Counted from the first letter of the stretch, positions 5,268 to 32,786 are shown. The stretch: DNA of 64,000 bases from an uncultured Verrucomicrobiae bacterium (GCA_963788655.1 CAWBHS010000026.1:1-64000); one strand, 5' to 3'. The notes: a model not told the origin generated them from the sequence alone. Program-made: numbers and translations.

Positions 5268-5421
5268 ATTGCACTCAAGCCCCTTGAGATGACAGCAATC
5301 AAGAAGTTACTTCCTTTTGGGTTCCTGGCCACCCTGCACCGCTTCCCGAAGCATCTCCGACAATTCCATTGCATCTGCCAAGTTGTTTTGGAAGTCTGGG
5401 GTGACATCACAATAAAAATCT

Positions 5422-7237
5422 ATGAGAATGAAGCTCAACAATTTTCTGGTCGGCCTAACCGGTCTGTTTCTAGTCAGCATCACCTTGCCCCCGGCCTTCG
5501 CGCAGAATGCCACCAAGGATTACACGAAAGAATCCGCGGCGGAACGCGACGCCCGCATGGCATGGTTCCGCGAGGCCCGTTTCGGCATGTTCATCCACTG
5601 GGGCGTCTATTCCGTGCCCGCCGGCGAATGGAAGGGCAAGACCAACTACGCCGAGTGGTTCCTGGAGCAGACCAAGATGCCCGTGCTCCGAGTACGAAAA
5701 GTATCGCCCAGCAGTTCAATCCGGTGAAATTCGACGCGCAGGAATGGGTGCGCCTCGCCAAGAACGCCGGCATGAAATACATCGTCATCACCAGCAAACA
5801 CCATGACGGCTTCGGCATGTTCCGCTCCGAGTTGACCGACTGGTGCATCAAGTCCACGCCCTTCCAACGCGACCCGCTCAAGGAGTTGGCCGACCGCCTG
5901 CCAGGCGGCCGGCATCAAGCTCTGCTTCTACTACTCGATCATGGATTGGCATCATCCGGACTGGGGCACCCGCCGGGCGTGGAACGACATGGCGCCCGCC
6001 ACGCCGCCGAACATGGACCGCTACGTCGCCTACATGAAAGGCCAGCTCAAGGAATTGCTCACCGGCTACGGCCCGCATCGGCATTCTGTGGTTCGACGGC
6101 GAATGGGAAAGCCCCTGGACCCACGAGCGCGGGCGTGGACCTTTACAATTACGTGCGCAGCCTCCAGCCCAACATCATCGTCAACAACCGCGTCGGCAAA
6201 GGCCGGGCCGGCATGGGGGGCATGGACAAGGGCCGAGGGCGTGGGCGACTACGGCACGCCCGAGCAGGAGATTCCGCCGACCGGCTTCGGGCCGGGCGTG
6301 GATTGGGAATCCTGCATGACCATGAACAACCATTGGGGCTACAACAAGCACGACCAGAATTGGAAATCCGCCCGCATGCTTGATTCGCAACCTGATCGAT
6401 TGCGCCAGCAAAGGCGGCAATTACCTGCTCAACATCGGGCCCACCAGCGAAGGACTCTTCCCCGCGCCCAGCATCGAGCGACTGGCCGCAATCGGCGACT
6501 GGATGAAAGTGAATCACGAAGCCATCTATGGCACCACGGCGAGTGCCTTCAAGAAACTCAGCTATGGCCGCTGCACCCAAAAGCCGGGCAAGCTGTACCT
6601 GCACGTGTTCGACTGGCCGGCGGATGGCAGGCTCCTGGTGCCCATTGCCAATCCGGTGCGGCGGGCCTATCTGCTGGCCGCTCGCAACCAACGGCTGCGC
6701 ACGGAAAAGACCGACGCCGGCCAAGTGCTGATCGTGCCCGCAACCGCACCCGATCTCAACGCGACCGTGGTGGTCGTGGAACTCGAAGGCAAACCCGAAG
6801 TGCTGGCGACCGCTTCCTCCCTCAAACAAACGGCGGACGGCACGTTGGTCCTCAACGCGAGCAACGCCGAGTTGGTGGGTTCCTCCATCAAACTGGAAAC
6901 CAAGACGGACAACGTTCCCAACATTGGCTACTGGGTGAACCAAAATGATTTTGTCCAATGGCCGGTGGTGATCACCCGGCCCGGTCTTTACGATCTGGAG
7001 GTGAGTTACGCGTGCGAACCGGACTCCGCCGGCAGCGAATGTGTGCTGGCGATTGGCAGCCAGGAGTACAGCCGCGCCGTGGAAGCCACCCAGGGATGGG
7101 GCGATTTCCAAACCGCAACGCTGGGGCAACTGCAAATCGATCAGACCGGCCCGATCACCATTTCGCTCAAAGCCACGAACAAGCCCGGATTGGCCGTGGT
7201 CAACCTGCGCCATCTGACCTTTCGCCCCGTGAACTGA
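5422..7237 (+). CDS. Alpha-L-fucosidase (GH29) with C-terminal carbohydrate-binding module; several frameshifts
   Basis: WFREARFGMFIHWGVYSVP, AGMKYIVITSKHHDGF, DWHHPD, WESCMTMNNHWGY and SKGGNYLLNIGP are spread over consecutive frames. Confidence 0.9.
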
Positions 7238-8109: not shown

Positions 8110-10711
8110 ATGACAAGACTCAAACTGATTACCGCCGCCGCAGTGATGCTGTTGGCCCCAATGGCCTTCAGCGCCGATTTGACCGTTACCACCCTGGCCG
8201 ACCAGGGCGCCGGTTCCCTGCGTCAGGCGATTGCTGACGCTCAATCGGGTGATCGCATCGTTTTTGCGAATGGCTTCGCTGGCCAGATTGTCCTGACGAG
8301 CGGGACCCTGCAAATCGACAAAGACCTGACTATTGCCGGACCCGGCGCGGACGAACTGTCCATCCGTGGCGCAGCGCCAGTATTTCGCGTTAGCGGGAAC
8401 GCGGTTGTGAGCATCTCCGGGCTGGCCCTTAAGGACATCTACGCGATTACCATCGATGGCGCCGGCATCCAACTCGAGGCCGGCACGCTGACGGTTAGCC
8501 GGTGTCGGTTTGAAAGTCTTATTGGCGGCAACGGTGGCGCTATCGCGGTAAGTACCGGCACGCTGCAAGTCCGCCAATGCACCTTTCTAAGCTGCGGCGC
8601 TCAGTCGGGAGTCGGCGTGGCTGGCTCGGGCGGCTGCATCTACAACGACAGCGGAACGGTGGAAATCGCCGATAGCACCGCCGAGTTGTGCTTTGCCACG
8701 GACGGCGCCGTGGTGTACAGCCAAGGCTCGTCCGGGGTCACCTTGAGTGGCTGCTTGTTCTATGAAAACGACGCCATCAAGGGCAGTGTCGTGTACAACC
8801 ACACGGCCACGGTGGAGGCCCTGGAATGCACCTTTGGTGCGAATTTCGCGGAAGCCGGCGGCGCCATTTTCAATGACGCCGGCACGGTCAGTCTGAGCTA
8901 CTGCACATATTCCGCCAACTTCACCGAGGCGGCCGGCGGAGCGATCTTCAATGATGGTGGCACGGTCTATCTGGCCAACACCATTCTGGCGAACGATTAC
9001 GGCGGTGGCCATTACGCGGGCGCCAACGATGCGGAAACCATTTCTCTCGGCTACAACCTTTGCGACAACAACGACTGCAGTGCTTTTCTAACTGCCGAAG
9101 ACGACCAAAACGGCGTCCCCGCTGGTCTGGCAACAGATACTCCCGTGGACAACGGTGGCTTGACCTATACCATTGCTTTATCGGAAACCAGCCCGGCCAT
9201 CAACGCCGGCGATCCCAACTTCGTTCCGCCTCCGTATTACGATCAGCGCGGAGAAGGTTATCCGCGCGTGCGCGGCGGCCGGATCGATATCGGGGCAGTT
9301 GAGTTCCAGAGCGCGGCGTCGCCACTGGCCATGCAGTGCCCGGCTCCATTGACTGTGGAATGCGCTTCCCCGAGCGGAACCCCCGTGACCCTCACGGCGA
9401 TCGTCACCGACACCGATGGCGCGGTGTTTCACGTGACGTGGTTGGTGGACGGCCAATCCGCACAATCCGACGACGTTCCAATCGGCGGCGCCAGCACAAG
9501 CTTAACGTTCACCGGTTCATTCGGCTTCGGTTCTCACTCGGTTGAAGTCCTGGTCATTAGTGACACTGGCAACCAAATGAGTTGCTCTACGTCCGTCACG
9601 GTCGAGGACCACACCGTTCCTGTCTTAGTATGCCCGGAGGACATCACCGCGGCCAATGCGGCTGCCGTGCCGGTGCCGGATCCCGACAATGTTCAGGCGA
9701 GCGCCGGCTGCTCAGCCGTGACGGTGACTTGGCTGGGCGACAGCGTTACTGCCAGTGCGGTGGCTTCGGGGGCACCATTCTCCGCACCTACCAAGCCACT
9801 TCCGCCGGGGGGCAAACAGCGGTTTGCGTGCAGACCATCACGGTGCTGTCCCAACTCGTTTTCAGCGACGAACACGTCACCGTACATTACGACAACAAAA
9901 ACGCGCCGAATGTCACGGGGGCCAATCACGGCTACAACAAGGCCGAGTTCCGGGGCAACGTCAGCTTCTGCGATGCGGGCCTGCTGCCTCCAGGCCTATT
10001 GGCGCCCGGAGCCAAAACCGTCTCAGCCCATGTGCTGGCCATGCTGGGCGACGTGCTGATTGCAGATGTCGAACTGGCTCTGGAAGTCAAAGGCGGACAT
10101 CAGGAGAAATGGGAATCGCCACACGGCCCGCACGGTGCGGTGGAAACCCTGAAACTCCATTGGAAAAACGCGGTGAAGTTCAACGCCAAAGATTCCAATC
10201 CGGAGTCGCCCAAGATGGAATCCAAGTTCATCGGCCTGGCCAACACGGATTTGCGTTACGAAGCCAAGGCTGGCTCCTACACCACTGTTTTCCCGAATAG
10301 CGTTGCGCTTACCGTCGAGGAAGGAAAAGTCGTTAGCGTCACCGGTTTGGGCAGCGGGCACCTACGAAATCGCCAACGACGAAAAGAAAGCCGATCTGAT
10401 GCTGCCTTACCGCTTGGTTCCCGGCATGGTGATCCCCATCCGCGGGCGACCTTAACGATACGGTCGTGGTGGCGGCGGGCGTGAACTACGAAACCGTCGA
10501 AGCCAAGTTCCAATTGAAACTGCAGCCGGACATCTTGCCGGTGCTGCCGTTGTTCAGCGAGCCGGATACGCTTCGCTACGACATTTTCCTGGGCACGGGA
10601 ACCGGTGAACGGATGGCCGTCGGCAATTCGGTGGTCGGCGTGGGTGCCAGAAAGTGGAACCAGAACGCCGGCAACCACAAGAAATTCAACGACGACGACA
10701 CGACGGATTAA
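8110..10711 (+). CDS. Secreted beta-helix protein with GGAI repeats, choice-of-anchor-Q-like and HYR-like domains; frameshifts near 9770 and 10360-10460
   Basis: Signal peptide; GAGSLRQAI start; repeated GGAIFND; DNGGLTYTIAL...SPAINAGD...DQRG...IDIGAVE; CSTSVTVEDHTVPVLVCPEDIT. Confidence 0.7.
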
Positions 10712-22362: not shown

Positions 22363-22495
22363 GCACTCCATTATGAACAAAGCGCCGAAAATGAACAGCG
22401 GGGAATTGCGGGAGGCGAAAAGGAATCGGTCGGTTTCGATAGCGGGATGTGAATTGCAGTGGAAGGAGTGAATTTCCTTTGATACTATGGGGGGC

Positions 22496-22711
22496 ATGAG
22501 TATAGCTGAAGTTGAGAAAGAAGCGCTGGCCTTGCCGGAAAACGAACGGGCGCGTCTGGCGGCTTCGCTGCTCGAAACCTTGCCGCCACCACTAGCGGAA
22601 GTTTCCGATGAAGAGGTTTTTCAGCGCGCCAGGGACTTGGAGGATGGGCGCGCCAAAGAGATATCCCATCAGGAGTTTGTCCGTCGGGTTGAACACGAGC
22701 GCCGACGATGA
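22496..22711 (+). CDS. Putative addiction-module antitoxin
   Basis: EALALPENERARLAASLLETL pattern; overlaps the start of a ParE-like gene (ATGA). Confidence 0.8.
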   Translation: MSIAEVEKEALALPENERARLAASLLETLPPPLAEVSDEEVFQRARDLEDGRAKEISHQEFVRRVEHERRR

Positions 22712-22985
22712 GGGTGGTTTACCACGCCGCCGTTCAGCAGGATATCAATCGGGCGTTGCACTGTTACGACCAACTATCCGGTCGTCTCGGAGACGAGTTC
22801 TGGCAGGAACTAACGGCGTATATTGAAGCCGCCGCTGCCAATCCGCTGCGGTTTCATTCTTAATTGAAGGGTCTGCACCGTGCGAACTTGAAGCGGTTCC
22901 CTTATTCTTTTCTGTACCGAATTCTCTCTGATCGTATTCGCGTCATCGCCGTTCACCACCCAGCGATTCACATTAGGGAACAGAT
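22708..22985 (+). pseudogene. RelE/ParE-family toxin with an in-frame stop (TAA 22861-22863)
   Basis: Reads MRVVYHAAVQQDINRALHCYDQLSGRLGDEFWQEL...NPLRFHS*LKGLHRANLKRFPYSFLYRI...IRVIAVHH. Confidence 0.75.
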
Positions 22986-22990
22986 TGGGA

Positions 22991-23062
22991 CGCCGGGTGA
23001 GGTCACCCGGCCTACCCGAGGGCGGGTTTGCGGCGTTGTAGGCCGGGGGCCCTCACCCGGCG
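22991..23062. repeat. Inverted REP pair
   Basis: CGCCGGGTGAGGTCACCCGGCCTAC and GTAGGCCGGGGGCCCTCACCCGGCG are near reverse complements. Confidence 0.7.
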
Positions 23063-23159
23063 AAAGCGGCTGAGGAACTCCGCCATTTTTAGCCATTTTT
23101 AGCTGTTCATTTGGTCGAAGCCGTGATTCACTTGGTTGAACCAATCGGAAAGGCTCATT

Positions 23160-25644
23160 ATGAAACAAGTTGGTTATGTCGCCCTCAATACTCTGCTGCT
23201 TGCCTTGTCTTGTGCGGCTCAGCAAATCCCCATCAACTCTTCCATCGCGTACGACGCGAATGATCCCACCCACGCCATCGTGCTCACGTGGGAAGCGATT
23301 CCGACGAAGATACTACAACGTGTTGACGACGACCGCGCTGGGACAACAGCCCTGGACATCCCTTAATCCCAACCCGATCTACGCGTCCAACAACCTGGTG
23401 CGTTTCGCGGACACCAATGACCAGTCCGCGCGGTTCTACAAGGTGGTCAAACTGGACACGGACCCGCCGGAGGTCTGGCGGGCGGCGCCGGGGGACGGCG
23501 CGATTGCCGTGGGACGGCAAAGCCCGCTGAAGGTATATCTGCAGGACGAAACGGCGATTGATCCCACTTCGATTGCGTTGACGGTGGGCACCAACCCGCC
23601 GGCGACGCTGGCCGATGGACGACTGGCCTACGCGAATGGCATGCTCACCTACACTCCGGGCACCAATGAGTTCCTGGGCAACTACGCCGCGACCGTGAGT
23701 TGCGCCCTGGCCGTGTCCGATACTCTGGGTCAGCGCGGAACCAACGCGTGGTCCTTCGGGCTCGAACTGGAAACGGTTCTGGCGGACAACGTGGTGCTGA
23801 TTGGCAGTCCCCCGGGATTCGCCGCCAAAACCGCCGCCTTGGCCAGTTCCTCCGGGCTGACGCTGGTGTCCACCAATGGAGCGACCTTTGTCTTCAGCTA
23901 TACCGGCGCTTCTTCCGGGCTGACCAATGGCCAAGTCCTGGTGAGCACCGACCCGGCTCATGCCTACAAACGAAAGATCATTTCGCTGGCCGACGATCCG
24001 GGAAACCAGACCGTCACCGTGGTTACCGAACAGGCTTCCTTGGCCGAGTGTGTCCAGCAGGGCAGCATTCGCCTGACCGGAGATTTTGCCGACTTGACCG
24101 GTGGGGGCGCTGGATTCTCCTCGATTGGCGCCACCATCTCCTTGGATGGGACCGAGTTGTTCGACAACGGTACGATCCGGGTGGAAGTGGTTTCCGGGCA
24201 AATCAGCTTCACGCCCGATTTCACCGTTTCCGGTGAGTTCGACTCCGGGCGTCTGGTTTCCTTCGATTCCGAGATCTCCGGCACGGTGGGCTTGGACATG
24301 ACGCTGCGAGGGAGTTTCCAGGTGACCGGTGATTGGGACGGCACCAAACCCCTCATCACTCCCATCCGCAAGGTCAATGTTCTCGCTTGGATTGCGGTTA
24401 TCCCGGTTTGGACCGAAGCGGTGATGGAGTTTGATATTGGTTACGAAGCGCAGGCCGAAGCGTTTGGGGAGGCGACGGCGGGCTTTACGTCCTCGCGGAC
24501 AATGACTTTTGGCGCCCGGCTGCGCGATGGGAATTGGAGCATGTTCCGCGATGAGTCCTCGTCGTTTGTTCCTGTGCCGCCCTCGTGGTCGATCAATGGC
24601 GCGGCCAAGGTGGCGGTTTATGTGGAGCCGAAACTGACGGTGTATTTGGAGAGCCTGGCGGGGCTGTCGGCGAACTTGAAGCCGTATCTGGAGGCGGACG
24701 GCAAGGCATGTGTGGTGCCGGGGCAGGCGGGAGTGGACTTTTCGTTGTATGCGGGTTTGAGCAGCACGTTGGCGGTGGATGTCAGGGGTTGGGATGAGGA
24801 CTGGGGGACGTTGCCTTCGTGGGAACTGTTCAATTTGCGCAAGCAAATCTACCATAAGAACCTGACGACACCCACGGGGCCGCCACCAAATGTTCTGCCG
24901 GGCATGGTGTGGATTCCGTGCGGGAGATTTACCATGGGCAGCCCGGAGAGCGAGCCGGCGCGTTATTCCAACGAAACCCAGCATGAGGTGACGATCAGCC
25001 GGGGGTTTTGGATGGGGAAGTATGAGGTAACTCAGGCGGAGTACCAAGCGGTGATGGGGAGCAATCCGAGCTATTTCCAGGGAGCCAACCTGCCGGTGGA
25101 AACAGTCAGTTGGCATGATGCGGTGGCGTATTGTGCGGCGTTGACGGCGCGGGAGCAGGCGGCGGGGCGGTTGCCCGCAGGGTATGTGTATCGGTTACCG
25201 ACGGAGGCGCAGTGGGAGTATGCGTGCCGGGCCGGGACGACCACGCCGTTCCATTACGGGAACGCGTTGCGTTCGGGGATGGCGAACTTTGATGGCCGTT
25301 ACGAATATCCACCGTGCGGGAGTGACTACTATGGCTGCTACAACCCCGGCGGCACCTACCTGGGGCGAACGACTTCGGTGGGGAGCTATGCGCCGAACGC
25401 GTGGGGATTTTATGACATGCACGGGAATGTGTGGGAGTGGTGTGCGGACTGGTATGGGGCGTACCGATGCGGGGCCCGTGACGGATCCTGTGGGGCCTGC
25501 CACGGGCTCGCACCGCGTGGTCCGCGGCGGCTATTGGCACTCCCTCGCCAGGTACTGCCGGTCAGCGGGTCGCGGCCACGACTACCCGGACTACTGGTAC
25601 GGCAACTCGGGTTCCGGGTGGTGCTGGTCCCAGGTCAGCCATGA
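23160..25644 (+). CDS. DGR target protein: secreted multidomain protein with C-terminal FGE-sulfatase (CLec-fold) domain; frameshifts near 23310, 25464 and 25607
   Basis: Signal peptide MKQVGYVALNTLLLALSCAA; FTMGSP, GKYEVTQAEY, LPVETVSWHDA, RLPTEAQWEYACRAG, NAWGFYDMHGNVWEWC. The shifted frame gives RVVRGGYW...CRSA, and the gene ends GFRVVL. Confidence 0.9.
25502..25644 (+). repeat. DGR variable repeat (VR)
   Basis: acgggctcgcaccgcgtggtccgcggcggctattggcac...gggttccgggtggtgctggtccca aligns codon for codon with 27489-27631. Confidence 0.88.
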
Positions 25645-25776
25645 GCTGGAAGGGGCGGCGGAGCGGCGCCGGAGCAGTCGAGGCGGGGCGAGGGACGAGC
25701 GAAGCCTGACTGCGGAGAGGCAGCGGAGCGACAATGCAAACGTAGCGGCGAAGATGAAAAAGCCCCGCGCAGCGGT

Positions 25777-25799
25777 CGCGATTTTTTTCCAAAATCGCG
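25777..25799 (+). other. Hairpin downstream of VR (candidate DGR target-recognition stem-loop)
   Basis: CGCGATTTT-tttcc-AAAATCGCG forms a perfect 9-bp stem about 130 nt after the target stop codon. Confidence 0.45.
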
Positions 25800-25820
25800 C
25801 GTGCCTTTCCGGCTCCCGCC

Positions 25821-25886
25821 CGGAGCGCGGACATTCTTGTCCGCCTTCCGCGCCGTCCGCTCGTCAGCGGACAAGAATTTTCCGCA
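25821..25886. repeat. Inverted REP pair upstream of the HRDC gene
   Basis: GGAGCGCGGACATTCTTGTCCGC ... GCGGACAAGAATTTTCCGC; the same family recurs at 26408-26477. Confidence 0.75.
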
Positions 25887-25916
25887 CCGATCGGCGCTCC
25901 TGTGAGTGAGGCCGCC

Positions 25917-26380
25917 ATGCAACTGAAAGCTGTTCGTGCTCCCGATCAAGAACCTCGCCGCCGCGGAAGGGCGAGATGAATGCGTTCCTGCGCGGGCACC
26001 GGGTGCTGGCGGTGAAGAAAGAATTCGTGCCGGACGGGGAGAACTCCTTCTGGACTTTTTGCGTGGAATTCCTGGACGGGGCGCCTGGGGGAGCATTACC
26101 CACGGGCAGCAAGCGGCCCAAGGTGGATTACAAGGAGGTGCTGAAGCCGGAGGAATTCGAGGTGTTCAGCCGGCTGCGCGAGTGGCGCAAGGCCGTGGCG
26201 GAGAAGGAAGGGGTGCCGGTGTATGTGGTGCTCAGCAATGAGCAACTGGCTGAAATGGTGCGGCGGCGGGCCTCCAGCAAAGCCCAACTGAAAGAGATCG
26301 AAGGCGTGGGCGACGCCCGCATCGAGAAATACGGCGCGGCGCTGCTGGAGCGGCTCGTTTTCAATCCGGTACCTGAATGA
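25917..26380 (+). CDS. HRDC-domain protein (DGR accessory); 5' end apparently frameshifted
   Basis: FSRLREWRKAVAEKEGVPVYVVLSNEQLAEM...LKEIEGVGDARIEKYG is a classic HRDC domain. Upstream, ATG 25917 reads MQLK/LFVLPIKNLAAAE. Confidence 0.88.
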
Positions 26381-26407
26381 GAGGAGCGCGCGAGCCGGTG
26401 CCGGCCT

Positions 26408-26477
26408 GGAGCGCGGACATTCTTGTCCGCTTGGGCGCCCCACCCGCGCCGGATGCGGACAGGAATGTCCGCGCTCC
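26408..26477. repeat. Inverted REP pair between HRDC and RT
   Basis: GGAGCGCGGACATTCTTGTCCGC ... GCGGACAGGAATGTCCGCGCTCC. Confidence 0.8.
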
Positions 26478-26486
26478 GCCCCCGGC

Positions 26487-27631
26487 ATGAGACGCGCGGG
26501 CCAACTCCTGGCGGCCATCGCCGACCCCGCCAACCTGCGGCTGGCCTTTTGGAAAGCGGCCAAAGGGAAACGCAGCAGGGCGGACTGCCGGGCCTTTCAA
26601 GAGGAACTGGACGCGAACCTCGCGGCCCTTCGCGACGATTTGCTGGCGGGCCAGGCGCGGGCGGGAGCCTACCACTACTTCACCATTCACGATCCCAAGG
26701 AGCGCACGATTTGCGCGGCCAGCTTCCGCGAACGGGTGTTGCACCACGCGCTGATGAACGTCTGCGAGCCGGTGCTGGAGCGGGCGGCCATCTTCGATAG
26801 TTATGCCTGCCGGAAAGGCAAGGGCAACTGGCGGCGGTACGGCGCGCCGAGACCTTTTCCCGGCAATACGGCTGGTTCCTCAAAATGGATGTGCGCAAGT
26901 ACTTCGATTCGGTGGCCCACGGTGTCTTGCGCGGATTGCTGGGCCGGAAGTTCAAGGACGCAGCCGTCCTGGCTTTGTTCGACCAAGTGCTGGCCAGCTA
27001 CCACACGACACGCGGATGCGGCCTGCCGATCGGGAATCTGACCTCGCAGCACTTCGCCAATTTCTACCTGGCGCCGCTGGACCGGTTCCTCAAGGAGCAT
27101 CTGCGGCGCCGGGCTTACGTGCGCTACATGGATGATTTCGTGGTTTGGGGTGACAGCGGCGCCGAACTGCGCGCCGTGTGGCGGGCGGTGGGAACGTTTC
27201 TTTCGGCGGAGTTGCGGCTGGAGTTAAAACCGACCGTGGCGTTGAACAAGACCGCCTTCGGCATGGATTTTCTCGGCTACCGGCTTTTTCCGTGTGACCT
27301 CCGCCTGGCCCGCCGGAGTCAACTGCGTTTTGCCCGCAAGTTCCGCCGCTATGAGCGCGAGCATCGGGAGGGGCGCTGGACGGAGCGGCAATTGGAGCAG
27401 CGGATGCAGGCGCTGGTGGCCTTCACCCTGCCCGCCCGTAGCCGGGACTGGCGAGTCCACGTCATGCACCGATTTGGGGTGGCAACCAACGGGCTCGAAC
27501 CGCGTGATCCGCGGGGGCAGTTGGAACAACAACGCGAACAACTGCCGGTCGGCGAACCGCAACCACAACAACCCGACGAACAGGAACAACAATATCGGGT
27601 TCCGAGTTGTCCTGGCCCCAGCTCAACCTGA
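26487..27631 (+). CDS. DGR-type reverse transcriptase; frameshift near 26824 in a G run
   Basis: [71 protein letters not shown] (SQ motif), [14 protein letters not shown]; no maturase or endonuclease domain. Confidence 0.95.
27489..27631 (+). repeat. DGR template repeat (TR), nested in the RT 3' coding region
   Basis: In the VR frame it reads [44 protein letters not shown], with 13 AAC codons and 1 AAT codon. Confidence 0.92.
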
Positions 27632-27762
27632 GCGTTGGACGACGCTCCGGCTGACCCGGCTGCCATCCTGTCCGCGAGGCTCGCTGTTTCGCGGCAAAGA
27701 GCAGTGAACGAAGGCCCGGTGTGAGTAGTGGAGCGGACGCTTCGCGAAAGCTCCGGGCTTTT
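27630..27762 (+). ncRNA. Candidate structured spacer of the DGR template RNA
   Basis: Stems GAGCGT...ACGCTC, CCGCGA...TCGCGG and GCCCGG...CCGGGC followed by TTTT lie directly 3' of TR. Confidence 0.4.
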
Positions 27763-28161
27763 CACTGGCGCCCAGCGAACCCGCCGCCACACGCCCTGAT
27801 GCCGGTTTAGCCGCCGGTGGACGTGAGCGGTTTCGGATGGGGGACAGTTCTTGGTATGGTACGCGGTTCTTGATAGTGGCAAATACTTGCCAGGCTTCTT
27901 CCCTTGATCCAGCCGAGGCTTCGCATGGCGATCCGCTGCAATTCCTCCGCAAAGGGAAACATGTAAATCTCCCATTGCTTCATGCGTCGAGGACCGGCTT
28001 GGAGCCGCGACAGATTCGTTCTTCAAAACGGGCATCATCGGGATCGGCATAGCACGAGGCAAAGTAACCCGATGGACGTATCGGATTTCCTTCGTTGTTA
28101 AACCAATCTATCCATTGATATTCGCGCTTGCGAGTGTGCAGCCGGGACGGCATGGTTGGGC

Positions 28162-28380
28162 ATGACCTGTGTTGGAAAAGTCGAGAAGGGAACCGTGGTG
28201 CTCCCACCGGAAGTCAAACTGCCGGACGGCACAGAGGTCGTGGTGAGCATTCCGGAATCGACGGCGGGCGGTCCAACCTTTGCCGAACGGTATAAAGCGT
28301 TCATTGGCATGGCCGACGATTTGCCGGAAGATCTTGCCCTAAACCTCGACCACTATTTGCATGGCCACCCGAAGAAATGA
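28162..28380 (+). CDS. Putative antitoxin
   Basis: GKVEKGTVVLPPEVKLPDGTEVVV...DLPEDLALNLDHYLHG; overlaps the PIN gene start. Confidence 0.75.
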   Translation: MTCVGKVEKGTVVLPPEVKLPDGTEVVVSIPESTAGGPTFAERYKAFIGMADDLPEDLALNLDHYLHGHPKK

Positions 28381-28778
28381 AACCCGTCTTCGTGGATTCG
28401 TTTTACTTCGTTGCCTGTCTTAACCGTCATGACCAGCATCACGAAAAGGCGATGACTTCTGCGCGCCAGCCAATGGGGCCGATGATTACGACTCGCTGGG
28501 TGTTGATGGAAGTTGCCGATGCTCTGGCTGCTTCCACTTGCCGCAAGCAAATGGCAGCCTTCATTTCCGCCTTGGAGGCAGACGCCAATGTTCGGCTTGT
28601 TGAGGCGCAGCTAAACCTTTTCCAACGCGGATTGGAACTTTACGACCAGCGGCCGGACAAGGCGTGGACATTGACCGATTGCATCTCATTTGTCGTGATG
28701 GCTGATGAAGGTTTGACGGATGCCCTCACGGGAGACCACCACTTTGAGCAGGCAGGGTTCAAGGCTTTGCTCAGATAG
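28377..28778 (+). CDS. vapC: VapC-family PIN-domain toxin
   Basis: VFVDSFYFVA, TTRWVLMEV, WTLTDCISFVVM, ALTGDHHFEQAGF. Confidence 0.9.
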   Translation: MKPVFVDSFYFVACLNRHDQHHEKAMTSARQPMGPMITTRWVLMEVADALAASTCRKQMAAFISALEADANVRLVEAQLNLFQRGLELYDQRPDKAWTLTDCISFVVMADEGLTDALTGDHHFEQAGFKALLR

Positions 28779-28883: not shown

Positions 28884-31800
28884 TCACAGCACTGCCAGCA
28901 ATTTCCTTATCTCATTCAACCGCGCTTTGGCGGTGGTTTTAGTCAGACGGGGGAACTTGCCGTGCAGCATGATGTAATCATTGTAGCGGGTCAGTTTGAG
29001 CTTGTCCTCCTGGGTTTCGATGGAACTGATGCCTTTGGCGCTGGCAATTAACTTCAGGGTGCTGACTTGCAATAGCAATTGCACCGGCTCGGGCAACGGA
29101 CCGAACCGGTCGCGCATTTCGCCTTTCAATTGTTCCAGCGATTCGTCGTCGGTGATTTCGGCCAGCTTGCGGTAGATCTCCAGCCGGTGTTGCGGGTCAG
29201 CAATGTAATTCAGCGGGATGAACGCGCCGGCTTTCTGGACGACTGGTGCTGATCGTGGCGACTTGTCGGAAGCAGGTTCGTCGGCCTCGCTGATATACGT
29301 TGCGGTTTCACGGGGCACGTTGATTTCAAGATCGGTATTGCGTTGGCCGCGACCTTTCTTTTGCTGCTTGCATTGGGTCGCCTGCGCTTCGGCGGCGGCG
29401 GCTTCACCGGCACTGGCGGCCAGGAAATCCAATCGCACCACCACTTCGACGCGCGGTTTGACCTTTTCGCCTTTAAGCGTCGCCACGCTTTGCTTGAGCA
29501 ACTGGCAGTAAAGCTCGAAACCCACGGCGGTGATGTGGCCGCTTTGCTCGGCGCCCAGCAGGTTGCCGGCGCCGCGGATTTCGAGGTCGCGCATGGCGAT
29601 TTTGAAGCCGCTGCCGAGCGTGGAGTATTGCTTGATGGCGCTGATGCGTTTGCGCACGTCGGTCAGCAGGCTGGCGTGGCGCGGCAGCAGCAGATAGGCG
29701 TAAGCCTGATGTTTGTAGCGGCCCACGCGGCCGCGCAATTGGTAAAGGTCGCTCAGGCCGAACCGGTCGGCGCGGTCGATGATGATGGTGTTGGCGTTCG
29801 GAATGTCGAGGCCGCTCTCGATGATGCGTCGTGGAAAGCAGCACGTCGGCTTCGCCGTTGACAAACTTGGCCATCACTTCCTCCAGGTCGTCGCTCGTGC
29901 ATCTGGCCGTGGCCGACGACAATGCGCGCCTGGGGCACCAGCGTCCGCCAGACGTGTGCGCCACAGTCATCGATCGTCGATCACGCGGTTGTGCAGGAAG
30001 AAGACCTGGCCGCCGCGGTTCAATTCGCGCTGGATGGCATCGCGGATGACGCGCTCGTCGTATTGCGACACGATGGTTTCCACCGGCAGCCGGTCATGCG
30101 GCGGCGTCTGGATGGTGCTCATGTCGCGGGCGCCGGTGAGCGCCAGGTAAAGCGTGCGCGGAATCGGCGTGGCGCTCAGCGTGAGCACATCCACCAGCTG
30201 GCGCAGCATCTTGAACTTCTCCTTGTGCAACACGCCGAACCGCTGTTCCTCGTCGATGACCACCAGGCCGAGGTCCTTGAACACGATGTCGCTTCTGCAC
30301 CAGGCGGTGCGTGCCGATGACGATGTCCACCGCGCCGGTCGCCAGATCACGCACGACGCGCTGCCTGGTTCCGGCGGGTGCGGAAGCGGGAGAGCAGTTC
30401 GATGCGGATCGGATAATCCGCCATGCGCTCGCGGAACGTGTTGAAATGCTGCTGCGCCAGCACGGTGGTCGGCACGAGCATGGCCACCTGTTTGCCGTCC
30501 ATCACCGCTTTGAACGCGGCGCGAATGGCGACTTCGGTTTTGCCGAAGCCCACGTCGCCGCAGATCAGACGGTCCATCGGCTTGGGCCGTTCCATGTCGG
30601 ACTTGGTTTCGACGATGGCGCGCATTTGGTCGGGCGTTTCCTCGTAGATGAACGCGCTTTCGAACTCGCGCTGCCAGGGCGTGTCCGCGGGAAAGGCGTG
30701 GCCGGCTGCGATTCGCGCGCGGCCTGGATGGACAGCAAGCTCAGCGGCGACATCCCGCACCGCTTTCTCCGCTTGTTCCTTGGCTTTGTTCCAGCGCGTG
30801 CCGCCGAGCGTGTTCAGCGGCGGACGCGCTTTGCCGGCGCCGACGTATTTGCTGACCAGATGGGCTTCGGTAACGGGCACGTAGAGGTTTGGGCGCCGGC
30901 TGCGTCGGAGTCGCGCGGCGCATATTCGATCACCAGGCATTCCTGGCCTGACTCCGGCAACGGACGCGGCGTGGCGCCTCCGGTCGCCGGCTTGTGCCGG
31001 TCGGCGGCGGCAGAAGCTTCAAGCCCAGGTAACGTCCGATGCCGTGCTGCACATGAACGACGTAATCGCCTTCTTCCAGATCCGTGAAATCAATGTCAAG
31101 CGCCGAGCGCGTCGCCTGGGCGTGCGGCGATTTCAGCCGGCGCGGTCGCTGCACTTTGTAGCGCCCGAAGATCTCCGCGTCGGTGACCACGACCAGTTTC
31201 GCCGAGTCGCTAAGAAATCCGCGGGTTAAGGCGCCCAGGTGCAACACAGGCGGAGCGCCTCGACCGCGGCCAAGGGATGCAGTCCTTTTTGCGTCAACGG
31301 CCGATGAAGCGTTTTCCGGGAGTGAGTTGCCTGTGTCGGTACTAGGAAGTCGAGGAGCTGAACCGGCATCACCCAACCCATATTCCTCCCAAATTTCATG
31401 GAACCGCTGACGTTCGCCGTCGTTGTTGCAAAAGACATGGACTTGGTAGCTCTGGCGCAGCCACCGGTGCAATTGGGCGAAAAACTCGCGGCGTTGTGCT
31501 TCGGCGATGGCTGGTTCCGGCGCGCGATCCACGATGGGCCGGAAGGCGTCGAGAGACGAGAAGGCGAGGTTGCCAAGCGCCGCATCCAACGGTCCCACGC
31601 TGGCTTCCGATGTATCCAATGGCGCAGCAGATGGCTCGCTGGCAGATGCCAATTCGTCGTCAGGTGGAAGTAGTGCTTCGCCTGCGAAACCAGCGACCAC
31701 GGATTCCTCCGCGGACAGTTCTAATTGCGTCATTCCCCGGTCGGCCAGTTCACTCCTGAAGTCTTCCCAATCGATATGAAACGAATCCTCCTCCGGCACC

Positions 31801-32786
31801 AGATCGGCGTAGCTGCCCGCGGTTTCAGCCAGTGCTTCCGGTTCGCACAACAGCCAGATCGCCGCGCGCGGCAAGTAATCCAGTAACGTGGCGAGCGCAG
31901 GGGGATGGTTACTTGTTGAGGGTTGATGGGACGATGCTGGTGGACCGGCGGTATCAGCTTTCAAGGCCAGTTCCTTTTTCAACACGCCCAGTTCCCCGGC
32001 AGGGGAAAGCAGAACGCTCGTGATGGGCTCCCGCGACATTTGGCTGATGGGATCAAAGAACCGCAGCGACTCGACTTCGTTGCCGAAGAATTCCAGCCGG
32101 ACCGGCCAGGGACTGGTGGGCGGAAAAATGTCCAGGATGCCACCGCGCAAGGCGATTTCGCCTTTGTGGTTAACCTGCGCTTCCGGCTCGTAGCCCAAGT
32201 CTTCCAGCCACTCGATCAAGTCGAGCGGATTGATTGGATCGCCGCGTTGCACGGTACGAATGCGCTGCCGCAATTGTTGCGGCGGGTAGGTGCGCTGGAG
32301 CAACGCGGTCACGCTGGCCACCACGATGGGTGACGCGGAAATGTCCGAGCCCGAGGTCGCAACAGTCGCGACCGACGACAAGGCAGCCAGAGTTTCCAGG
32401 CGCTCGCTAATGACGTCCACGTGCGGGAGTTTACCTTCGTGCGGCAGCACTTCCCAGGCGGGATAGAACAGGAGTTGTGAGCTCTGGTTTGCTGGCGGGG
32501 AATCAGCGGTGTTTCCATTTTGGCTCGCTCCATACTTCAGCCACGTGGTGATGTCCTGATGATGACTCTCCTGCGTCTTCAAGCCCTCGGCCACCACGAT
32601 GACCGGACGTTGGGGAAACAACCGATGCAAGAGCACCGCCAGGAAAGGTTGCGCACCCGCGCTGACGCCACCGCAGGGCAAAACACTCCCCTGCTCCAGT
32701 CGCTGTGCCATCGCCTGCACGGTGGGAGTTTGCGCTGCCGCGGCGAACAAATCGTTTGCCACCGTCCTGGATTTCCTGGACGCCAA
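28884..32786 (-). CDS. mfd: Transcription-repair coupling factor; multiple frameshifts
   Basis: [84 protein letters not shown]. Confidence 0.95.

Follow-up and report, generated by a model that had tools for sequence, protein, structure and literature searches.

The stretch of DNA analysed here (64,000 nt from an uncultured Verrucomicrobiae bacterium, GCA_963788655.1 CAWBHS010000026.1:1-64000; hereafter the window) carries a cassette in which a target gene ending in a C-terminal variable region (VR) is followed by a hairpin, a gene for an HRDC-domain protein, a reverse transcriptase (RT) gene that overlaps a template repeat (TR) at its 3′ end, and a structured RNA (Table 1). The locus is almost certainly a diversity-generating retroelement (DGR). 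A preliminary description made from the sequence had recognized a DGR with its RT, target and TR/VR pair, and had overlooked the HRDC accessory gene and the cis elements.

Table 1. Features of the DGR cassette and the neighbouring mfd gene, in window coordinates (ORF, open reading frame).
Feature	Position	Strand	Basis and remarks
Target gene	23160..25644	+	About 828 codons read through; ORFs, Pfam PF03781, homologues in three frames
Variable region (VR)	25502..25644	+	Adenine-mutagenised part 25502-25605; GC-rich constant 3′ part to about 25633; target stop codon 25642-25644
Conserved hairpin	25674..25713	+	About 30 nt downstream of the target stop; folding and alignment
HRDC-domain accessory gene, 134 aa, in place of Avd	25976..26380	+	Pfam PF00570, E 8.8e-21
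DGR reverse transcriptase	26487..27631	+	Two frames, 26487 to about 26825 and 26804-27631; RVT_1 Pfam match
Template repeat (TR)	27489..27631	+	Alignment to VR; PF03781 positions 209-254 on translation of 27294-27707
Structured RNA, 147 nt	27619..27765	+	Starts in the last TR bases; folding, covariation, covariance model
mfd (transcription-repair coupling factor)	28884-32786	-	Only copy in the genome; at least six frame disruptions

Local alignment pairs TR 27481-27633 with VR 25494-25646, and weaker homology of the TR to the VR flank is seen from 27468 onward. Over the ungapped core of 104 nt (TR 27489-27592 versus VR 25502-25605), mismatches fall on 22 of the 34 TR adenines compared to 8 of the 70 non-adenines (odds ratio 14, one-sided Fisher P 4.7e-8). 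Read in the frame of the target, the TR specifies an asparagine (Asn)-rich FGE-sulfatase C-terminus. Its 13 AAC codons, taken in the frame of the ORF at 27294-27707, correspond in the VR to CAC, CAC, TCC, CTC, AGG, TAC, GGT, GGC, GAC, TAC, TAC, TAC and GGC, with the third-position C retained in 11 of the 13. The alignment in the preliminary description was thus reproduced, its list of codon changes matched exactly, its hand count of about 24 adenine substitutions came to 25 across 27489-27631, and formal alignment confirmed the enrichment of mismatches at adenines. The adenine signature therefore stands, but the description had omitted that the differences are not confined to adenines (12 of the 37 substitutions in 27489-27631 fall on non-adenine TR positions), that two indels separate the repeats (a 1-nt VR deletion opposite TR 27593 and a 1-nt insertion near TR 27629), that the VR codons do not share the frame of the upstream target, and that the RT is spread over two frames.

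The 3′ boundary of the repeats is marked by one conserved TR/VR difference, CAGC in the TR and CAGG in the VR, present in the window and in six of the seven relatives displayed. The GC-rich block before this boundary is the same in TR and VR of the displayed relatives, whereas the window has four mismatches there (3 non-adenine and 1 adenine). The boundary thus resembles the paired IMH/IMH* (initiation of mutagenic homing) sites of DGRs, and an inverted repeat lies downstream of the VR. TR and VR are the sole plausible partners for each other in the assembled genome (8.96 Mb in 115 contigs, 5.6% contaminated). No other TR or VR was found in the assembly, where the runners-up show 24 and 20 mismatches at non-adenines per 104 nt; as the genome is 86% complete, an unassembled partner could still exist.

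The translation of 26804-27631 contains PIGNLTSQ and YMDD, the RT motifs pointed out before. Among solved structures the best relative of the RT is 8ub7_A, a 328-aa RT (E 2e-26) that we take to be bRT, the enzyme of the Bordetella phage DGR; this match lies well ahead of group II intron RTs (7.7e-12) and retron RTs. A scan of NCBIfam, which like Pfam holds no DGR-specific model, gave only sub-threshold group II intron, retron and Drt matches; the RT lineage was judged from the structural match, the motifs and the TR/VR pairs beside homologous RTs. The enzyme is encoded in two pieces: 26487 to about 26825 is 91% identical to residues 1-114 of a homologue, and 26813-27628 is 79% identical to residues 110-381. 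Between them, one base is missing at KGKG/QLAAV, near 26823-26825. A programmed −1 frameshift was considered for this junction and rejected, because all nine aligned homologues are single uninterrupted ORFs there. At the 176 columns where these nine homologues agree, the window RT has five private changes, compared to 1-13 in the homologues themselves, and to judge from its sequence the enzyme shows no sign of relaxed selection. The last ~50 RT codons overlap the TR, and the C-terminal tails of homologous RTs likewise read through their TRs. No Avd family match was obtained in a Pfam scan of the cassette ORFs, in which no search aimed at Avd was made.

The target carries a PF03781 FGE-sulfatase domain (E 9.9e-45, residues 577-767 of the ORF at 23170-25644), supporting the earlier assignment to the C-type lectin (CLec)/FGE-sulfatase fold. 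A signal-peptide-like N-terminus, probably a genuine signal peptide given the hydrophobicity kept in homologues, is followed by a small beta-sandwich-like domain with FYKV at its end, a middle part of uncharacterised nature, and the C-terminal FGE-sulfatase (CLec-type) domain, which ends in the VR; CLec and Ig-type domains at the 3′ end of a target ORF are where DGR VRs lie. Homologues of 758-857 aa (Verrucomicrobiota where named) match pieces of the gene in three frames; their C-termini also end in the VR region at the stop codon, and they are annotated as FGE-sulfatase family proteins and nothing more. The frame changes near 23310, near 25457 and at 25606. The first change separates the signal-peptide-bearing N-terminus (from 23160) from the body of the gene, and the second lies just upstream of the VR. 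In consequence, the VR codons are shifted to frame +1 with respect to the preceding target sequence, i.e., out of frame in ORF 23170-25644, until the deletion at 25606 brings back the frame that encodes the final GFRVVLVPGQP and ends at the stop codon.

RT homologues are abundant: 4851 of 6864 scored candidates reached E≤0.001, the best of them 76-84% identical to the window RT. From species-representative genomes, 80 related loci were taken, mostly from Verrucomicrobiota but also from Planctomycetota, Bacteroidota, Desulfobacterota and further phyla, and 73 of them have an HRDC homologue directly upstream of the RT. A TR could be located in 53 loci, and a VR was then sought in each stretch with a scoring tolerant of adenine mismatches. 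In 37 of the 53, a VR of at least 100 columns was found that differs from its TR by 13-27 adenine mismatches and only 0-3 non-adenine ones, indicating that this RT family performs adenine-specific templating. Each relative's VR moreover carries non-adenine bases specific to its own TR lineage, which points to recent templating at those loci. The remaining 16 comprise 14 loci with only short chance matches, since their VR is not on the stretch examined, one weak pair with 13 non-adenine mismatches (L041), and one locus that yielded an identical second copy (L051). Under the same scan the window gives 28 adenine and 13 non-adenine mismatches over 154 nt. Together with the adenine bias and the relatives of the RT, the 37 loci support the DGR interpretation put forward in the preliminary description, namely a signature of adenine-specific mutagenic retrohoming.

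Some of the related loci deviate from the common pattern. The VRs of L022, L028 and L032 (3 of 37) have a single-base deletion opposite a TR adenine run that breaks the target frame, and L034, L059 and L096 have 3-nt indels, which fits the AAC-adjacent indels described in the portion of Wu et al. 2017 (PMC5758913) drawn on here. L051, from a member of the Planctomycetia, has the TR with its 3′ RNA twice, at 7008-7120 and 8897-9009 (-), the second copy being identical and inverted; with an HRDC homologue encoded at 10049-10417 on the minus strand, this suggests two DGR cassettes arranged tail to tail. Close to home the element was not detected: the RT query found no match in the five nearest genomes (82-96% complete), so that its distribution is patchy, and no metagenome contig matched the exact patterns used, a 30-nt stretch of the RT and a 33-nt stretch of this TR allele.

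Two conserved RNA or DNA structures accompany the repeats. The hairpin behind the VR could be folded in 14 of the 16 sources examined, the window included, and in an alignment of 12 sequences nine of its 13 predicted pairs stay paired through changes on both sides. It likely corresponds to the inverted repeat behind the IMH of the Bordetella phage DGR, which promotes homing there. The structured RNA behind the TR folds into four helices, and its near-invariant motifs in single-stranded parts are CTGACCCGG, GGCAAA and GTGnnAGTAG; in helix 1 the last TR bases are paired with the near-invariant CTGACCCGG segment. Among 20 sequences, compensatory changes occur in 22 of the 30 pairs, and 92.3% of cells are paired, whereas shuffles give 73.3% and slid partners 27-49%. 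None of 500 shuffles reached the covariation score of 0.512 (0.163 in shuffles). A covariance model built on these 20 sequences and searched against 81 sources (E≤0.01) has matches in 65, of which 45 are outside the seed. Nearly all matches lie directly after the RT/TR on the same strand, L035 and L051 each having one additional match elsewhere. The 64 kb of the window contain a single match, which at 138.9 bits is the second best of all.

This RNA likely corresponds to the Spacer RNA from which cDNA synthesis is primed in the Bordetella phage DGR. A scan of 25400-28300 against Rfam 15 (E≤1) gave no match, and a literature search, without supplements, found no description of this RNA. Tentatively, it might represent a self-priming RNA not described before and peculiar to HRDC-type DGRs that lack Avd, in which CTGACCCGG supplies the priming adenosine beside the TR:RNA duplex. 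In that case it would offer a way into the workings of DGRs without Avd.

A mechanism can be proposed from this layout by analogy with the phage element. The available portion of the Handa et al. preprint reports that in Bordetella phage the TR is directly followed by a Spacer RNA, which pairs with the TR end and primes cDNA from an internal adenosine, and the part of Wu et al. 2017 (PMC5758913) at hand describes a GC-rich IMH and a downstream inverted repeat as the marks of the recipient. In the window, the RT would bind a transcript spanning RT, TR and RNA, presumably together with the HRDC protein as a substitute for Avd. Helix 1 would put the conserved CTGACCCGG beside the 3′ boundary of the TR, such that the structured RNA, paired with the last TR bases, could prime cDNA synthesis in cis. 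The RT would then misincorporate opposite TR adenines, and the cDNA would replace the VR up to the boundary CAG/C (TR) or CAG/G (VR), with the GC-rich block and the hairpin behind the VR as guides. This would re-randomise some 13 Asn (AAC) codons that fall on the ligand-binding face of the CLec-type domain of a predicted secreted protein of ~828 aa. The VR clearly bears the scars of past mutagenic homing events.

Neither the RT nor the target is an uninterrupted frame, since four 1-nt breaks (one in the RT, three in the target) separate their pieces. The adjacent mfd gene is broken more heavily: it runs through frames -3, then -1, then -3, and its out-of-frame stretch has two stop codons at about 29790-29970. 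From the ORF at 30565-30753 and a homologue, a second short out-of-frame stretch is predicted near 30713-30750. All 12 relatives examined have mfd, with open frames of 368-1373 aa; in 10 the gene is a single frame exceeding 1100 aa, and the two shortest are probably cut by contig ends. At 23-33 kb we thus count at least 10 breaks (four in the DGR and at least six in mfd), versus one in the other genes examined, while several long genes elsewhere in the window are uninterrupted. The single break outside this region splits an alpha-L-fucosidase gene (5289-7237, +) into two ORFs at 6380, with Pfam positions 84-149 in the first and 299-345 in the second. Tracking frames by codon usage along the window was too noisy to map breaks. 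The concentration of breaks at 23-33 kb looks like locally poor consensus and, with mfd broken and the RT free of excess substitutions, the DGR indels are probably local assembly errors. On balance, we regard the four DGR breaks as artefacts rather than real lesions, with modest confidence.

Several observations weigh against this reading of the breaks. None of the DGR breaks lies at a long homopolymer, making them a poorer fit to the simplest long-read error. Six group II intron RT copies found elsewhere in the genome have uninterrupted frames, so the assembly is not uniformly poor. At 25606, the VR deletion adjoins AAC/AAT, and the text of Wu et al. 2017 (PMC5758913) available here includes real DGR indels at AAC-adjacent sites. 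Given also the 1-nt VR indels beside adenine runs in 3 of the 37 relatives, the deletion at 25606 could be a real product of the RT.

The non-adenine differences set the window apart from its relatives, with 12 versus 0-3 in the 37 loci. Six of the 11 that lie outside the boundary are synonymous third-position changes in the target frame (GGG/GGC, GCG/GCC, TCG/TCA, the final base of GGT, GTT/GTG and GTC/GTG), as expected if the sequence drifted in the ordinary way while purifying selection acted on it. With 12 non-adenine differences in 143 nt, occasional consensus errors are no explanation, and neither is a mixture of VR variants, since variants written from one TR share its non-adenine bases. 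Five VR sites have the base or codon seen in TRs of relatives (GGC in 6 of 8, AGG in 6 of 8, TCA in 4 of 8, GAC in 3 of 8 and GCC in 2 of 8). As the full explanation of the VR a foreign TR was rejected: the best of them, from L040, leaves 9 non-adenine mismatches in 139 nt, compared to 13 in 154 nt for the window's own TR, and no sampled TR fits well. As 12 non-adenine differences have accumulated, including three in the GC-rich 3′ block, the VR has, in our view, long gone without rewriting from the present TR. The simplest reading is that its last rewriting used a TR allele that was earlier or different, TR and VR having drifted since without a homing event, and the mismatched 3′ block may contribute to the absence of homing. 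A weaker reading takes the window copy as a natural "frozen" target, whose VR escaped rewriting through its 3′-block mismatches while the RT-TR module stayed intact. Against long inactivity, the portion of Wu et al. 2017 (PMC5758913) used here reports up to 11 non-A-to-N differences in one target, some perhaps due to noncanonical mutagenesis, so that the differences by themselves are no proof of inactivity. The preliminary description implied a clean, active and unusual element, which does not agree with 12 non-adenine differences where 37 relatives have 0-3, with a frame-broken RT and target, or with a family that is very common.

Overall, the data are best explained by a genuine chromosomal DGR of the HRDC type, with a VR that was not recently rewritten and breaks that are more likely assembly errors, and we hold this combined account with good confidence. 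That the locus is no DGR at all, the TR being a decayed fragment of an FGE-sulfatase paralogue beside an unrelated group II intron or retron RT, is highly improbable. The translated TR does match the FGE-sulfatase Pfam model, NCBIfam offers only sub-threshold group II intron and retron matches for the RT, and group II intron RTs are numerous in this genome. But such a fragment would account neither for the adenine bias (P 4.7e-8) nor for a TR as rich in Asn codons as DGR templates are; the RT-TR-RNA layout recurs with adenine-only differences in 37 relatives, and the RT is only 25-30% identical to the other RT copies of the genome.

The question of its present state is closer. That the DGR genes are intact and the VR has merely not been rewritten recently is quite plausible, if short of an even chance. 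Less likely is a fossil, in which frameshifts truly inactivated RT and target and the VR has drifted as ordinary DNA since. The one RT break and three target breaks, the 12 non-adenine differences versus 0-3, the 3 non-adenine and 1 adenine mismatches in a GC-rich block that is identical in the displayed relatives, and the lack of an RT-query match in the five nearest genomes (82-96% complete), which suggests a dispensable element, would all suit such a fossil. The RT, however, has no excess of private substitutions (5 of 176 versus 1-13 in homologues); the HRDC gene, the TR, the structured RNA (138.9 bits) and the hairpin behind the VR are in good condition; synonymous changes in the target frame make up half of the non-adenine differences, indicating that the VR was under selection while they accumulated; and the heavier damage to the adjacent single-copy mfd points to local consensus errors. 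Lower still we place a fully active DGR whose indels are consensus errors and whose non-adenine differences come from a chimeric strain consensus or noncanonical mutagenesis. It draws on the clustering of at least 10 breaks at 23-33 kb versus one in the other genes examined, on the intact cis elements and motifs, on an assembly that is 86% complete, 5.6% contaminated and in 115 contigs, and on AAC-adjacent indels and multiple non-A-to-N differences in DGRs that the excerpted text of Wu et al. 2017 (PMC5758913) treats as functional. It conflicts with the facts that a mixture of VR variants from one TR cannot make non-adenine differences, that the VR fits no sampled TR well (9 non-adenine mismatches remain with L040), that the assembly has no other TR, and that same-family relatives have only 0-3 such differences, so that a high rate of noncanonical mutagenesis is not a family trait.

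The element is chromosomal and non-phage. Among 18 neighbouring proteins, none matched a phage structural family in PHROGs, bearing out the absence of phage context noted in the preliminary description; the PHROG matches concern the RT and target of the DGR itself and proteins of the polysaccharide export type. By Pfam, the neighbourhood encodes glycoside hydrolases, a deacetylase, toxin-antitoxin modules, mfd, polysaccharide export genes and FtsK. Toxin-antitoxin-like pairs of small genes flank the DGR on both sides, at 22487-23073 and 28156-28778; one consists of an ORF resembling an addiction-module antitoxin with short ORFs behind it, the other of a small ORF and, after it, a PIN-domain protein. 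A palindrome resembling REP (repetitive extragenic palindromic) elements, GCGGACA, 4 nt, TGTCCGC, occurs at 25827-25844, 26413-26430 and 26455-26472, always in intergenic spacers of the DGR. As a DGR element it was rejected, having 55 copies in the genome but occurring in only 4 of the 80 related loci, and it appears to be a general repeat of these genomes and not part of the DGR. One RT homologue, P0013, has a 42-residue insertion seemingly encoded by a REP-like element. The genome also contains at least 11 group II intron-type RT copies (contigs C39, C60, C68, C107 and others), six of which have identical scores and open frames of 492 aa.

As a DGR, the element adds little: chromosomal FGE-sulfatase/CLec DGRs of the Planctomycetes-Verrucomicrobia-Chlamydiae (PVC) group have been catalogued by large surveys and its RT family has thousands of members. 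It illustrates that a textbook adenine signature can sit in an idle, decayed or mis-assembled element. Automated DGR calls from draft genomes should therefore be checked for non-adenine differences and reading frames before activity is inferred. The family itself is of wider use, being a uniform and widespread Avd-less, HRDC-dependent DGR with defined cis elements, whose reconstitution could show how HRDC replaces Avd.

Compared to the Bordetella phage BPP-1 DGR (mtd-avd-TR-brt), which serves as the model for the mechanism (Handa et al. 2018 and the 2024 preprint), the window element shares the nearest solved RT (8ub7_A, E 2e-26, presumably bRT), a structured RNA immediately 3′ of the TR, adenine-specific mutagenesis and a CLec-fold VR. 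It differs in that HRDC replaces Avd, that the TR follows the RT instead of preceding it, that it resides in a bacterial chromosome and not in a phage, and that its target is a secreted FGE-sulfatase-type protein and not a tail fibre. The I-G and Q of PIGxLTSQ are conserved as well, residues that the accessible sections of the Handa et al. preprint name as template and dNTP (deoxynucleoside triphosphate) contacts; in those sections of the 2024 preprint only Avd-containing DGRs are analysed. Within the portion of Weinberg et al. 2017 considered here, RT-10 is the only motif tied to a DGR, that of BPP-1; the RNA element of the window has no match in Rfam 15.

The closest described class are the HRDC DGRs, termed Architecture C in Wu et al. 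2017 (NAR 46:11, PMC5758913), the quoted part of which lists 14 among a set of 372 DGRs, in 11 arrangements and with a Treponema DGR as example. HRDC is one of the accessory genes of DGRs, beside Avd, MSL and CH1. With its HRDC gene inside the cassette, the window element belongs to this class, and it also shares with it the chromosomal non-phage site, the C-terminal CLec-type VR, the A-to-N differences, the IMH-like constant sequence at the 3′ end and the inverted repeat after the VR. Against the 11 arrangements given there, the order found here is target-HRDC-RT-TR with the TR overlapping the 3′ end of the RT, and it is uniform across the relatives fetched. In its host the element resembles the cellular DGRs of Verrucomicrobia and Planctomycetes that Roux et al. 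2021 (Nat Commun 12:3076, PMC8144416), in the passages relevant here, recovered from metagenomes and scored for activity by VR polymorphism.

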